DNA of 64,000 bases from an uncultured Chlamydiae bacterium (GCA_963828125.1 CAWHDP010000002.1:1088001-1152000); one strand, 5' to 3'; shown: positions 5,925 to 10,532, counted from the stretch's first letter. Program-made: numbers and translations. The notes: a model not told the origin generated them from the sequence alone.

Positions 5925-8900
5925 TTATTTCAGTACTACGGGACGCTGAAACTCATCATAGAGAATTTCTCTAATCGAGCCGTTCGGCAGCGTGATTTTA
6001 GTTAATCCGCCAAAGGCGCTGTATTCATAAGAGCTTATCCCTCCCAAAGCATCTACAACCTGCACCAAATGATCTTTGTCATCATAATCAAAAACAGAGG
6101 TTAGGCCTAAAGGGTCAATTTTCGACAATACGTTCCCGTTGTCGTCATATGAATACACCGTTTCACCCAAAGGAGAAGAGATTTTTGTCACTCGATCTCG
6201 TTCATCATATGAATACCGTATGGTTTTGCCCGATTCAGAAACTTCAATCAGACGTGCACGATCATCGTAGGCTCTTTTCGAAATGAATCCGTTGGGACAG
6301 CAAACTTCTAAAGGAAGCCCCTTTTCATCCAGCTGAAAGCTTTTTCCGCCGCCGCCTGGGAAATCGACGGAAAGAAGACTTCCTGTTTGAGGGTCATACT
6401 GAAAAGAAGTCGCAAATCGCTCATCTCCTTTCTTAGTTACTTTCCCATTTTCTATACTCAAAAAATTAAGACGAAATGGTTTATACATCTTTATCAACCT
6501 TCCGTATGCGTCATATCGATATGCCGTAGTGATTCCAAGCCCATCGGTTTCTTCAAGAAGATTGCCTGATTCGTCAAATTCAAATTTCCTTTCCCCTCGA
6601 TAGGCATCGCTTATTTTAATAGGTCGGCCTAAGACGTCATATTTGTAGGAAACCTCGAGCCCATTATTATCAACAGTCTTTTCAGGCCCGAAAGTCCCCG
6701 AATAACTCAGTTCTAACCCCCTTCCTAGTGAATCTACAATTCGTTGAGGCCGATATTTTTCGTCAAACTGTTCTTCCAAGAAAAAATTGTTGGGACCCTC
6801 TACTCGAGCCCTTCGCTCAGACAAACTGAACTCCTGCTTAAGCTGCATTCCCTGAATATTTTTCTCTTCCGCACGATTGTAAATATCGTAGCTTGCCTCA
6901 AAAATTTTACTCCCTTTTGCATCAAAAATAGCCGTGAGATGTAAATCTTTATCGTAGACATAACTCATGAGAGCGCCCGCCTTATCTCGAACTTCCCTAA
7001 GCTGACCTTCGGGACCATAGAAATAAGAGATAGTTTTACCTCCAGCTCCCACAGCGCGGATGATCTTGGACCCTTCATATTCAAGCTGAATGACCGGAGT
7101 CCCCTGAGAAGAAATGGAAACCAATCTCTCTGCCTCATACCCATAGTCAATTGACATTCCGCTTTTATCGCTGATCTTGACAAGTTTACCGTCGGAATCG
7201 AAGAAAAGATGCTCCTGTTTTTGGGAAAGGACAAAGATTCCATCTCCATTTTCAATCAAAAAACCAGCCTTGCTTTCGGCGCGATAAATCGGTTGTTTCC
7301 CAACATCAAGTCCTATGAGTTTATAAAGCGTCTCTTGGCTTTTAATCCCTACAAAAATCTCGGAGTACACTTGCAGCTCCGTTCCATCTTGAAAACGACG
7401 CCATCTTTTTTCAGAAGCGAAGCGCAATTTTGCAGGAAGAATTTCCCAACCTACCCCCAGTGCCGATCTTTGCTCATTGAAAGAGCTGTAGGTTCGAACA
7501 AGAGCCAAAGGCACACTGCCCGGAACGGAAAAGTTCATGTCGACAAAAGTTTTCTTTACGTTACCAACCTTAAGCGATCTGGCAAACGTTTGAGCAACAG
7601 CCGTATAGCCTCTGCCAAAATCCCAAGTTAACTCTTCCTCTCCCGATCTGCCTCGCAATACCTCATCTTTGATGTCATTAGCCTGCCATCCATCTGAAGT
7701 AGAAAAGTTGCTCTCATCCAGATGATAGGTTACACCCCCGCTAATCACCATTCGATATTCGGCATCTCCTATTTGAGGGGTGTAGATCGGCGTACTAACA
7801 GATTGAGGCGCATAACTTCTAAAAAATGAAAGGTCAAAGGGTATGTTTTGATCTTTGATCCATTTAACAACACCCGTAATTTTACCAAGTCTTTTTAAGT
7901 CTTGAAGGACAGGAAATTCATTTGCAAACGCATCATAATTTTGCGTGAAATGGGAAGCGAAAGTTTCCGCTGCATGATCGCGGTAATTACTTCCTTTAAA
8001 TTGCGATTCAGTGAGGACCTGCATACGGACCTCGTCGAACACCATAGAAGTCCCATCCTCCGACTGCACAAGGCTAATCTTCTGAGGAACAAACCACATG
8101 CGCCATGTGAAGTAGGGAGGCAAGTGTTTCTCTCGGCCATAAAGTTCTAGAAGATCGCGGTAGCCGCCAACATGGGCTTTAAAATTCCTGCCTGTGCAAT
8201 TATCCTTTCCCAAAACAAGATTTTTTAAAAGACAATCAGCCTCGAACATCACCTGCCCAAAACGAGTGTCTTTCGTCTCACCAAAATAAGAGACAACCAT
8301 TCTATGCTGAGGTTTTTTCTTCTTTTTCGGAGGATTAGGATCTGGGTCCATAGAAATACCAGGATCTTGCGCCGCTTTTTCTCCCAATCCATACACAGAA
8401 CGAACCGCCACGGCCAAATCATCAAGGTGCATTTGAGGCAACGGTAAATCTTTCGTCCCATAAAGGATCATTTGACCCGTTTTTTGATCAAAAACTGCCC
8501 CCGCAATATCGGAAATGTTCGTCATCATCTCAGCTGTTTTTGAGAGAGAAATCCCTCCGTAATTCGGCTGAAATAATAAGCTGTGGTCTTGATTTCCAAT
8601 TTGGAATTGAAAATGGTCAAAATCATAAGACAAACCAAGTCCTTCTTTATCCGGCAAAAATCTTGGATCGATATGCTTGCTCTCTTCCAGCATCCAATTG
8701 CAAAATTTTCTGGGTGCTGAAATTCCGCTAGGAAATGGCTTGAAACTCGGATGAGGATACCCTACTGCATCCATCGATTTAACCGCATGATCGATACAAT
8801 TATCGTATGGCGTCCAATGCTGATAATTTCCGACCTGTCTTGCAAGCAATTGCTGCTCTGGAGTAACCCATATCGTCAAGCTGACAGTTTCTTTGCATAG

Positions 8901-10532
8901 AGAAAATTCATGCTCGTTATTTTTTATTTTATGGCCAGGCCACGCGCCTTGAGTAAATTGATTGCCCTCCGCATCTATCCCGCCTATCCAACCATGACCT
9001 ACATTAGATTTGCCACCGGGCGTTTGAGTCCCAGGATAATTCCCATAAAAAGTCAAAGGGACTTTAACAGCATACAATCCTGATGGGTCGATTAAATTGA
9101 CAGGATTATTCCTGACATAAACATAAGGGTTAAGAGTTTGGGGATCGCCTAATACGCCTAAGACAGAATCAGGCGAAATAAATCTCCCAATTTCAGGATC
9201 ATAGTAGCGATTCCGAAGATAGATAAGACCAGTCTCTTCATCATACTCCTCTCCCGCGTATGCATAGGGATTTCCAAAGCTGCTTGATTGATCCCTGAAG
9301 CCAAAAGAGGAATATGCATACCTCTCCAGCACCCTTTGATTTTTATCAACTAACAGCGAAACGCTTTTCCCAGGCTGGTCATAAAGGAAGAATTGCGTGC
9401 CGGAAACCCCAGAGCCCAGAATACGGGAACATCCATACACATACCGTTTTTTGGTCTTGCCCTTGCCGTCTTTTTCTAATAAAACTCTGCTAAGGGAAGC
9501 TGCCGGATCGTTGATAAAAGACGTTTTTTCCCCATTGACAATCTTCGAAACCCGCCTCCCTTGTCCATCGTAGCCAAAAGCGATCTTATCGTTTCCATTA
9601 TCAAATGAAGTAAGACGCCCGGCTGAGTCATACCCAAGGCTGATGTTTTCCTTTTCGGAAGTTTTTTTGACCAAGCATCCCGAAGCATCATAATAAAAAC
9701 GAGTCCCTCCTGCCCGTATTAATCGATTGCGACTATCATATTCATATTCAATGGTTCCATTCGGCGTAATCTTGGCCAAACGATTCCCAGCGCCATCGTA
9801 GGTGTACTGTTCAAATGAATGATCAGAGTAACGAACCTCAACAAGCCTTTTTAATTGGTCGTAAGAGTAGCCCGTGGTTTTAGTCTCTGAGAGCGTTCGT
9901 TCTTCAACTGACGTACAATTATTATTGCTGTCATAGGTAAATTCGTACTGCGTAATAAGCCCGCCGTCTGACTTCTTGTGCGACACTCCAGTAATTCTAG
10001 GAAAGGCATCATAACTGTACTCAACGACAATGCCGTTAGACAGCCACTCCTTTACAACGAGGTTTGTTTGATCGTTATATTCATATTCGGTACTGCCGGT
10101 CTGATCAAAAACCTTAGTTAGCCGGCCTCGATGATCATATTCGTACTTAACTTCTTCCCGATCAGGATAAGTAATTTTAACGACCCTATCTGCTAAATCG
10201 TATTCGTAGACAAGAGAAGTATCTCCTGGAAACTGCGCTTTCACCAAACGGTTTGAAGAATCATAAGAATAAGAAGTGGTTTCGGCACCTTTAACTACTT
10301 GAGTGAGATTGCTGTTGCAATCATAGGTATATTTGATGCTTTCGCCATTAGGATAGCGAGTTTCAACAAGCCTGTTGATCGGGTCATATGAATAAGCAGT
10401 CGATCCCATGGGAGAAATTGTGCATTTGGAAATATTGCCATTTGCATCATAAGATATGGATTTTTCTATATAATCCGCTGAGAGGCAAAAAATAGAAAAA
10501 AGGGAAAAGAAACAAACAGAAAATAAATTCAT
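5925..10532 (-). CDS. Rhs/YD-repeat protein with permuted domain order
   Basis: Many YD repeats; Rhs core end GLIYLRNRYYDPEIGRFISPD...PYVYVRNNPVNLIDPSGL at about aa 482; DUF6531-like DMNFSVPGSVPLALVRTYSS...LGVGW later; signal peptide. Confidence 0.92.
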   Translation of the reverse strand: MNLFSVCFFSLFSIFCLSADYIEKSISYDANGNISKCTISPMGSTAYSYDPINRLVETRYPNGESIKYTYDCNSNLTQVVKGAETTSYSYDSSNRLVKAQFPGDTSLVYEYDLADRVVKITYPDREEVKYEYDHRGRLTKVFDQTGSTEYEYNDQTNLVVKEWLSNGIVVEYSYDAFPRITGVSHKKSDGGLITQYEFTYDSNNNCTSVEERTLSETKTTGYSYDQLKRLVEVRYSDHSFEQYTYDGAGNRLAKITPNGTIEYEYDSRNRLIRAGGTRFYYDASGCLVKKTSEKENISLGYDSAGRLTSFDNGNDKIAFGYDGQGRRVSKIVNGEKTSFINDPAASLSRVLLEKDGKGKTKKRYVYGCSRILGSGVSGTQFFLYDQPGKSVSLLVDKNQRVLERYAYSSFGFRDQSSSFGNPYAYAGEEYDEETGLIYLRNRYYDPEIGRFISPDSVLGVLGDPQTLNPYVYVRNNPVNLIDPSGLYAVKVPLTFYGNYPGTQTPGGKSNVGHGWIGGIDAEGNQFTQGAWPGHKIKNNEHEFSLCKETVSLTIWVTPEQQLLARQVGNYQHWTPYDNCIDHAVKSMDAVGYPHPSFKPFPSGISAPRKFCNWMLEESKHIDPRFLPDKEGLGLSYDFDHFQFQIGNQDHSLLFQPNYGGISLSKTAEMMTNISDIAGAVFDQKTGQMILYGTKDLPLPQMHLDDLAVAVRSVYGLGEKAAQDPGISMDPDPNPPKKKKKPQHRMVVSYFGETKDTRFGQVMFEADCLLKNLVLGKDNCTGRNFKAHVGGYRDLLELYGREKHLPPYFTWRMWFVPQKISLVQSEDGTSMVFDEVRMQVLTESQFKGSNYRDHAAETFASHFTQNYDAFANEFPVLQDLKRLGKITGVVKWIKDQNIPFDLSFFRSYAPQSVSTPIYTPQIGDAEYRMVISGGVTYHLDESNFSTSDGWQANDIKDEVLRGRSGEEELTWDFGRGYTAVAQTFARSLKVGNVKKTFVDMNFSVPGSVPLALVRTYSSFNEQRSALGVGWEILPAKLRFASEKRWRRFQDGTELQVYSEIFVGIKSQETLYKLIGLDVGKQPIYRAESKAGFLIENGDGIFVLSQKQEHLFFDSDGKLVKISDKSGMSIDYGYEAERLVSISSQGTPVIQLEYEGSKIIRAVGAGGKTISYFYGPEGQLREVRDKAGALMSYVYDKDLHLTAIFDAKGSKIFEASYDIYNRAEEKNIQGMQLKQEFSLSERRARVEGPNNFFLEEQFDEKYRPQRIVDSLGRGLELSYSGTFGPEKTVDNNGLEVSYKYDVLGRPIKISDAYRGERKFEFDESGNLLEETDGLGITTAYRYDAYGRLIKMYKPFRLNFLSIENGKVTKKGDERFATSFQYDPQTGSLLSVDFPGGGGKSFQLDEKGLPLEVCCPNGFISKRAYDDRARLIEVSESGKTIRYSYDERDRVTKISSPLGETVYSYDDNGNVLSKIDPLGLTSVFDYDDKDHLVQVVDALGGISSYEYSAFGGLTKITLPNGSIREILYDEFQRPVVLK

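Follow-up and report, generated by a model that had tools for sequence, protein, structure and literature searches.

Rhs proteins have a canonical order in which an N-terminal domain is followed by a DUF6531 segment, a shell of YD repeats, a DPxG self-cleavage site and a terminal toxin. To our knowledge, the cages of Rhs, Tc and teneurin proteins have always been described in this way, as cap, shell, core and, at the end, toxin, and models of how toxins are loaded and released rest on this order. WapA-type proteins also follow it, with a C-terminal toxin and an immunity gene downstream. Here we describe P0001, a Rhs/YD protein of 1535 amino acids (aa) encoded in a 64,000-nucleotide (nt) stretch of DNA from an uncultured Chlamydiae bacterium (GCA_963828125.1 CAWHDP010000002.1:1088001-1152000; hereafter the window). 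The kind of cage is itself known; what sets P0001 apart is the cyclically shifted order of its parts, which is conserved in many bacteria.

Type VI secretion system (T6SS) Rhs effectors, namely RhsA of P. protegens (7Q97), RhsP (8H8A/B), Tse5 (8CP6), the S. bongori and Advenella proteins (entries beginning 8QJ) and Tre23-Rhs (7PQ5), have in common with P0001 a YD spiral cage, a DPxGL aspartyl autoprotease core, a DUF6531-type start and an enzyme, predicted in P0001, directly after the cleavage site; structural matches reach Z scores of 19-27.5 over ~500 residues. In P0001, however, the C-terminal shell half and the core are placed ahead of the remaining parts, the toxin slot lies within the chain and leads on into what is the N-terminal domain of the canonical form, and a Sec-type leader stands where the T6SS effectors have PAAR, VgrG or prePAAR parts. 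The conserved domain that follows the slot, here called dom2, has no match to the plug regions of these effectors. In the BC cocoon of Tc toxins (TcdB2-TccC3, YenB-YenC2) one cage is built from two polypeptides, a situation comparable to a split relative described below (locus L053), and the P0001 core region aligns to TccC3 and YenC2; yet the Tc order is the N-terminal half (TcB) and then the C-terminal half with the toxin (TcC), whereas both the fused and the split forms reported here have the C-terminal half first. SpvB, beta-propeller and TcA-binding parts are absent from the Pfam matches of P0001, and no search was made for a TcA partner. Teneurins are matched through the PF25023 shell alone, with no FN-plug, NHL propeller or Tox-GHH found by Pfam. 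In Sec-dependent Rhs/YD toxins such as WapA, as with the leader of P0001, a signal peptide takes the place of a T6SS adaptor and is accompanied by YD repeats, a core and a toxin. P0001 is not an E. coli-type RHS core protein (NF041261, 174.8 bits against a cut-off of 2000).

P0001 is encoded by one uninterrupted open reading frame (ORF), as a first-pass annotation of the sequence had claimed, with the following features from N- to C-terminus:

5925..10532, (-) strand: whole ORF, encoding P0001, a probable permuted Rhs/YD cage protein; 1535 aa, ATG start, single open frame
10476..10532, (-) strand, aa 1-19: hydrophobic Sec-type leader MNLFSVCFFSLFSIFCLSA, read from the sequence
9315..10475, (-) strand, aa 20-406: YD block "shellA", corresponding to the C-terminal part of a canonical cage (phmmer, hidden Markov model (HMM))
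9075..9314, (-) strand, aa 407-486: Rhs-associated core, an aspartyl autoprotease by family (TIGR03696)
9075-9089, (-) strand, aa 482-486: DPSGL motif, within the core
8640..9074, (-) strand, aa 487-631: predicted cargo in the toxin slot, a papain-fold domain of the permuted NlpC/P60 (TseH-like) type (AlphaFold2 model and VIA superposition)
8562..8639, (-) strand, aa 632-657: linker, predicted disordered and weakly conserved (model confidence, alignment)
7563..8561, (-) strand, aa 658-990: dom2, a conserved 330-aa domain (model, relatives)
7413..7562, (-) strand, aa 991-1040: DUF6531-like shell start (Pfam match at 1000-1030, VIA superposition)
5928..7412, (-) strand, aa 1041-1535: YD block "shellB", corresponding to the N-terminal part of a canonical cage (VIA)

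This order of leader, YD repeats, core, ~500 non-repeat residues, DUF6531 and again YD repeats is real, because both the family matches and the motif positions give it. Pfam detected RHS_repeat (PF05593, E 6.4e-83, in 12 stretches), TEN_YD-shell (PF25023 at 174-482, 55.8 bits against a cut-off of 50) and DUF6531 (1000-1030, E 2.9e-5, 24.7 bits against a cut-off of 24.1), and NCBIfam detected Rhs_assc_core (TIGR03696 at 407-486, E 6.2e-25, 87.5 bits against a cut-off of 32.5) and YD_repeat_2x (TIGR01643, E 7.2e-56). The matches to RHS_repeat, TIGR03696 and DUF6531 thus come in the order that had been predicted: the DPSGL motif lies at nt 9075-9089 with its aspartate at aa 482, the DUF6531-like motif that had been placed at ~7435-7577, downstream of the core, has its Pfam match at aa 1000-1030, and the chain ends, as had also been noted, within a YD repeat (...ILYDEFQRPVVLK). 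No second core was found at the C-terminus by Pfam, NCBIfam or the region HMMs described below. P0001 therefore carries all the defining sequence features of Rhs cage proteins with the exception of the canonical order (N-terminal domain, shell start, repeats, core, C-terminal toxin), its core being at 407-486 and its DUF6531 at 1000-1030.

The first-pass annotation had further proposed that the two halves of the shell are swapped, and comparison with solved cages agrees with this, the two YD blocks mapping to complementary halves. Using phmmer against solved structures (E down to 1e-46), we found that aa 47-486 align to residues 837-1290 of RhsA (7q97) and aa 20-485 to residues 710-1151 of RhsP (8h8a), in both cases the last part of the cage together with the core. 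For the C-terminal side we used an AlphaFold2 model of aa 658-1535 (pLDDT, the predicted local distance difference test score, 87.4; pTM, the predicted template-modelling score, 0.75), of which model residues 329-878 correspond to aa 986-1535. In VIA comparisons these residues matched 8qja_B (Z 27.5, root-mean-square deviation (rmsd) 2.6, 507 aa, chain positions 23..571), RhsA 7q97_A (Z 24.9, rmsd 2.8, 502 aa, 308..851), 8cp6_B (Z 23.6, 52..625) and 8h8a_A (Z 19.2, 158..686). Mapped on RhsA, the C-terminal block thus covers 308-851 and the N-terminal block ~837-1290. As modelled, the two blocks make up a single cage and share no more than one or two repeats at the seam, the N-terminal block supplying ~45% of the shell (its last part) and the C-terminal block ~55% (its first part).

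Whether the blocks could close on each other was addressed by a two-chain docking prediction of aa 20-486 with aa 1003-1535, in which the family alignment was supplied for both. The docking gave an ipSAE score of 0.81 (0.82, 0.81 and 0.80 in the individual runs), compared with 0.00 for the best of three controls, with at least 94% contact agreement between runs and a partner pLDDT of at least 81; the mark used for docking is reached by 116 of 157 solved complexes and by 2 of 215 mismatched pairs. The predicted interface consists of periodic stripes on both chains and includes residues 21-32 and 1526-1535, so that in this two-part model, as distinct from a model of the full chain, both chain ends lie in the interface, in keeping with the earlier suggestion that the termini would be adjacent. 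These predictions support closure without showing it. The two halves might instead pair between molecules, as domain-swapped dimers or chains: the blocks are ~530 residues apart, split relatives are separate polypeptides that would need to meet, and the docking cannot tell within-chain from between-chain pairing because it was run with two separate chains. The linker and the two folded middle domains are long enough for closure within one chain, however, and the conserved chain ends fall in the predicted interface, and we regard pairing between molecules as improbable.

A swapped order could also arise if an assembly had joined two ordinary rhs genes, a concern raised by the metagenome-type assembly and its many rhs genes. 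A Logan contig of run X1 spans 6588-10191, and therefore the segment from nt 7400 to 9100 where a false join had been feared, with 0 differences; contigs from a second sample, X2, tile 6869-8850, also with 0 differences. X1, the best-covering run, may be the source sample itself. Relatives also bear on the question. Searching with aa 487-1000 returned 87 proteins, mostly of 1520-1575 aa, whose named sources include Simkaniaceae, Rhabdochlamydia, Neptunichlamydia and other chlamydial bins; segment-wise blastp placed their segments in the same order as in P0001. Fifty-five relatives (1480-1640 aa), from independent genomes and metagenomes, align with P0001 from end to end at 32-67% identity (mean column identity of 45% in the full-length alignment). 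In these relatives a YD repeat directly follows the hydrophobic leader and the C-terminus is conserved, of the type LPNGSxREIxYDxxxRP. When 15 relatives were scanned with NCBIfam and Pfam, the full-length ones had the core at ~400-500 and DUF6531 at ~990-1070, and none had a second, C-terminal core. A misjoin is effectively refuted, since these relatives match the ORF over its whole length and share its termini and an unvarying protease motif; what is seen is a conserved order. Within the phylum, the middle region is present in 20 of 301 genomes (including the genome of the window) and 16 of 165 genera, with all carriers belonging to one order, and permuted members named outside the chlamydiae are found in Chloroflexota bins (P0130, P0103). 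None of the runs listed as holding the locus is an RNA dataset.

The relation of this order to the canonical one became visible through dom2. An exhaustive search with aa 658-1000 matched 2060 representative clusters with a limit of E<=1e-3, of which 1073 reached E<=1e-10 and 261 reached E<=1e-30; the best 150 of the 2060 were covered here. HMMs for six regions, built from the family alignment, were scanned over 221 collected proteins. The core stands before dom2, as in P0001, in 145 of these and after it, in the canonical order, in 9, while 67, many of them fragments, have no core; these counts are biased by the queries used to collect the proteins. Similarly, the 77 new representatives of at least 1400 aa comprise 61 permuted proteins, 9 canonical ones and 7 without a core. 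The canonical P0219 (1552 aa) consists of a leader, dom2 (59-393), DUF6531 (403-442), matches to the shellB (482-933) and shellA (937-1314) HMMs, the latter directly preceding the core (1315-1394), and a 158-aa tail. Canonical members therefore have the same leader, dom2, DUF6531, shell blocks and core as P0001, arranged as leader-dom2-DUF6531-shellB-shellA-core-toxin. Judged by its modules, P0001 is an exact cyclic re-ordering of P0219 started at shellA, that is, a circular permutation. By the same comparison dom2 is the ancestral N-terminal domain, since it follows the signal peptide in the canonical relatives.

On a FastTree phylogeny of dom2 (163 rows after 47 fragment rows had been dropped; midpoint-rooted purely for display), the nine canonical proteins (P0219, P0178, P0155, P0182, P0186, P0187, P0194, P0202 and P0206; loci L040-L043) form one clade together with P0218 (Shimodaira-Hasegawa-like support of 95). 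Comparison with locus L040 suggests that P0218 is a shortened canonical gene call. The label "permuted" takes three changes on this tree. Longer relatives (P0034, P0038, P0040 and others) were considered as canonical ancestors and rejected, as they have either the P0001 order with C-terminal Ig-like domains or the dom2 half alone.

The ~500 residues between core and DUF6531 had been read as internal cargo. An AlphaFold2 model of aa 487-1000 (pLDDT 86.1) divides them into two domains separated by a disordered stretch (aa 632-657), and we found that ~145 aa are indeed cargo-like, while ~330 aa are dom2 and would belong to the cage as its ancestral N-terminal domain. The linker between them is modelled at pLDDT <50 (model residues 146-171) and shows low conservation and frequent gaps. 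Dom2 is confidently modelled, strongly conserved and always found directly before DUF6531; it belongs to no Pfam or NCBIfam family, and it has no Foldseek match at E<=0.001, no VIA match above Z 3.4 and no usable ESM Atlas match.

The cargo part of the model (pLDDT ~90) has no Pfam or NCBIfam sequence family either, and Foldseek alone found no match to the middle-region model at E<=0.001. VIA, however, matched aa 487-620 to the T6SS effector TseH (6v98_A; Z 10.6, rmsd 2.7, 122 aa), with lower-scoring matches to YiiX (Z 7.5), to 3kw0, a cysteine peptidase of B. cereus (Z 6.5), to the RID domain of MARTX (Z 6.1), to Aichivirus 2A (Z 5.9) and to PLAAT4 (Z 5.1). H513 and C579 are invariant in the 56 aligned sequences, with the histidine preceding the cysteine. 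According to PMC12994826, a conserved histidine before the cysteine characterizes the permuted NlpC/P60 group, which is reported there as lipid-targeting, and phospholipase activity of TseH was reported in one assay. The residue order in P0001 is that of this group, to which TseH, YiiX, LRAT, PLAAT and Tox-Act1 belong, and the modelled fold matches TseH, YiiX and PLAAT4, so that we predict the cargo to be a TseH-like enzyme. Unlike the members of the TseH group, it sits inside a cage protein, is fused at its C-terminus to dom2 and lacks a sequence-family match.

Directly upstream of the cargo, the core contains the two-aspartate/DPxGL autoprotease motif (TIGR03696 and alignment), with R442, Y443, Y444, D445, P446, G449, R450, F451, D455, D482, P483 and G485 invariant in the same 56 sequences. 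From this conservation we infer cleavage after L486 (DPSGL|Y), which would yield fragments 20-486 and 487-1535, held together non-covalently. The toxin-position domain had been thought to be tethered at both ends; while it is continuous with the chain on both sides in the ORF, cutting at the conserved site would leave it with the C-terminal tether only.

The slot itself is variable across the family. Among the 145 permuted proteins, core and dom2 are 92-348 aa apart (median 173), and the sequences after the DPxGL site are very diverse: 77 match the TseH-like HMM and 68 carry other sequences. No Pfam family was found in any of the 28 of these other slots tested, and we regard them as putative toxin slots from their position and variability.

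Several relatives differ from P0001 in how the modules are distributed. At locus L053 (labelled as a Pedobacter sp. bin) two genes divide the modules between them and keep the order of the fused protein: gene A (635 aa) encodes a leader, shellA (34-421), core (422-502) and a 133-aa tail, it is followed by three small ORFs (218, 216 and 97 aa), and gene B (P0050, at least 1870 aa) encodes a leader, dom2, DUF6531, shellB and Ig-like domains. Pfam found nothing beyond RHS_repeat in gene A and the small ORFs. On the dom2 tree, with its midpoint root for display, the 7 rows of the split group fall within the permuted proteins, beside P0034, a placement that would favour an origin of the split form by fission of a permuted gene. 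Other variants include a permuted protein of at least 3793 aa, extended at both ends (L037), and a form without shellA, represented by P0100 (L036, 1904 aa: leader, ~25 residues, core, slot, dom2, DUF6531, shellB, Ig-like) and shared by P0096-P0101. The ends of relatives include Ig-like, fn3, WD40 and FGE-sulfatase domains, and several copies are shortened or broken.

Two further loci are irregular. On the metagenome contig L035 (nt 404-585 and 875-1040) there is an overlap between a small membrane ORF of two helices and the stop of a core-plus-toxin ORF, and the leader of the next dom2 gene is in a different frame, separated by a run of C bases, probably a sequencing frameshift. The member at L064 (G126:C1) lies in three frames: the first (517 aa) stops just past the core, the second (984 aa) begins ~20 residues inside the cargo and the third (77 aa) is the shell end; it is probably a pseudogene with its first break near the autocleavage site, and has genes of the small family described below on both sides.

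P0001 had been predicted to be exported by Sec rather than delivered by a T6SS, and sequence comparisons support this. A strongly hydrophobic 11-aa window occurs within the first 45 residues of 48 of the 56 members, compared with 8 of 1837 later 45-aa chunks, and 3 of the 8 exceptions look like N-terminally shortened gene calls. No PAAR, VgrG or prePAAR adaptor family was found in the Pfam scan of P0001, and its genome (95.4% complete) has no match to PF05943 (TssC) or PF05488 (PAAR), so that T6SS delivery is unlikely. The type II secretion pseudopilin PF08334 has no match in this genome. At L024 and L026 (genomes G034 and G032, of one genus) we noted, by eye, ORFs with prepilin-type pseudopilin-like N-termini and large ATPase- and platform-like ORFs beside the permuted gene, which would suggest a type II secretion or pilus cluster.

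The gene neighbourhood includes the following:

10573..11094, (-) strand: small exported protein, copy 1, 173 aa; conserved upstream partner and candidate immunity protein
11096..11599, (-) strand: small exported protein, copy 2, 167 aa; paralogue of copy 1
5055..5912, (-) strand: downstream ORF with a leader, 285 aa; related to the small gene by blastp
3358-4530: tyrosine integrase, flanking the module
2246-3361: ORF with a DUF4096 transposase domain, flanking the module
11885-12208: AbiEii fragment, on the other flank
12244-12915: shortened integrase, on the other flank

The small protein, of ~150-185 aa and bearing a leader, lipobox or membrane anchor, has its gene immediately upstream on the same strand. 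The 285-aa ORF falls into one cluster with it, and a stretch of this ORF is weakly similar to L028's upstream small gene (26% identity over 122 aa, E 1.6e-10). The small gene is present in 19 loci (the window, L023-L032, L034, L038, L039, L061, L063, L064, L067 and L068). It is absent from L033, where an insertion sequence cut the gene's start; from L062, where no cargo separates the core from dom2; and from L036 and L037, which have other slot sequences; other neighbours vary between loci. This pattern of presence would fit an immunity protein or another partner specific to the cargo. Because all carriers are related chlamydial loci, however, the association does not count as independent evidence. 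The idea that the small protein is a detached copy of the Ig-like domain found after shellB was dropped (hhalign probability 0.1).

The same data can be read differently, with the permuted cage as a periplasmic or surface scaffold that carries a housekeeping lipid- or envelope-modifying enzyme rather than a toxin, and the small protein as a structural component. The TseH-like cargo is conserved rather than polymorphic across chlamydial members, with its H513 and C579 unchanged throughout the alignment; the partner gene lies upstream, whereas Rhs immunity genes are usually downstream; no other slot tested contains a known toxin family; and the Ig-like, fn3, WD40 and FGE-sulfatase ends of relatives are typical of surface proteins. 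Against this reading, the protease motif that frees Rhs toxins is invariant, and the slot lacks the TseH-like domain in 68 of 145 proteins; moreover, the closest solved fold is that of a T6SS effector, and the split form has small genes directly after its toxin-bearing gene. Taken together, we consider a housekeeping role unlikely.

The surroundings of the gene also bear on whether it functions at all, or is instead a by-product of recombination between rhs genes, fused in frame and now decaying. Rhs loci recombine, integrase and transposase fragments flank the gene, and several relatives are shortened or broken. A degenerate second copy lies in the same genome (G000:C2:1078391-1080395, L002/L003), ~14 kb from the gene and 8-10 kb before the start of the window, in which aa 2-424 (76% identity, one TGA) are joined to aa 1285-1533 (94% identity) by an internal deletion that removed the core, cargo, dom2 and part of shellB; a contig from X2 shows a matching joint, from 6673 to 9340 in window coordinates. 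The segment 13307-18701 is syntenic with L030 of another genus, where a member only 38% identical to P0001 sits at the corresponding position without these mobile remnants. The 2.37-Mb genome has many other large frames with Rhs repeats and core (1050-2828 aa, three of them of ~2820-2828 aa), which are in canonical orientation by match order and none of which matches P0001 aa 500-1000. Against decay, the frame is open at full length, and order, termini, catalytic residues and partner are conserved in relatives as distant as ~32% identity, from several families within a single order as well as from Chloroflexota, making a functionless fusion very improbable.

Based on these results, we consider it likely that P0001 is a genuine, conserved, circularly permuted Rhs/YD cage protein, a view supported by the same order in 55 end-to-end relatives and by the core preceding dom2 in 145 of 221 proteins. 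Several points weigh against this view or parts of it. The DUF6531 score exceeds its cut-off by just 0.6 bits, and the P0001 leader has no basic residue before its hydrophobic stretch. The models cover parts of the 1535-aa chain, the path of the linker and the position of dom2 relative to the lumen are conjectural, and the docking pass may stem from likeness to solved Rhs and Tc cages. None of the 28 slots tested (of the 68 without a TseH-like domain) contained a Pfam family. The link between the small protein and the TseH-like cargo is confounded with kinship, and the small protein itself has no Pfam or NCBIfam family, with Atlas matches <0.9 and structural TM <0.5. Export, cleavage, closure, cargo location, activity and function in P0001 are all inferred.

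Combining the above observations, we outline how such a protein might work. After Sec export, the two blocks would join to form a single cage whose seam lies at the meeting point of the chain ends, and the cargo would be held in the lumen, tied through linker 632-657 to dom2, which would cap the start of the spiral together with DUF6531. Removal of this cap could then pull the cargo out, and the small exported proteins encoded upstream may serve as an immunity protein or another partner of P0001. A precedent for a chain that runs between lumen and cap is offered by RhsA: as reported in PMC8765631, its N-terminal region passes by way of the plug into the cocoon, where it is cleaved.

One form of this mechanism, which we put forward tentatively and hold to be possible but doubtful, is a "cork-on-a-string" cage: the toxin would stay covalently tied to the cap at the cage entrance by a flexible linker leading out of the lumen, and dislodging the cap, for example upon target contact, would pull the unfolded toxin out with no need for a T6SS or TcA injector. 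With similar reserve, we speculate that it would act in Sec-exporting, T6SS-less bacteria, including intracellular chlamydiae, and that the canonical, fused-permuted and two-gene forms would be natural variants of a cage that assembles piecewise.

The literature searched, from which most subscription journals were missing, yielded no account of an Rhs cage that is permuted or split in reverse order, in line with the first-pass annotation, which had known of no described system with this topology. The string "permut" is absent from the searched portion of PMC3482391, and one of the papers found on Rhabdochlamydia and RHS only lists RHS family proteins in a table.

If the permuted cage is as we describe it, a spiral that can be opened at a seam in mid-shell would nonetheless be kept by selection, the cage could be completed from separate pieces given in the "wrong" order, and a toxin would be held inside while still joined to its cap. 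The permuted family may then offer handles on how the cage folds around its cargo and how cargo exits, as well as designs for split or loadable protein containers. This work also defines a widespread 330-aa domain without a family or a solved fold, and points to a Sec-dependent Rhs system in chlamydia-like bacteria without T6SS markers.

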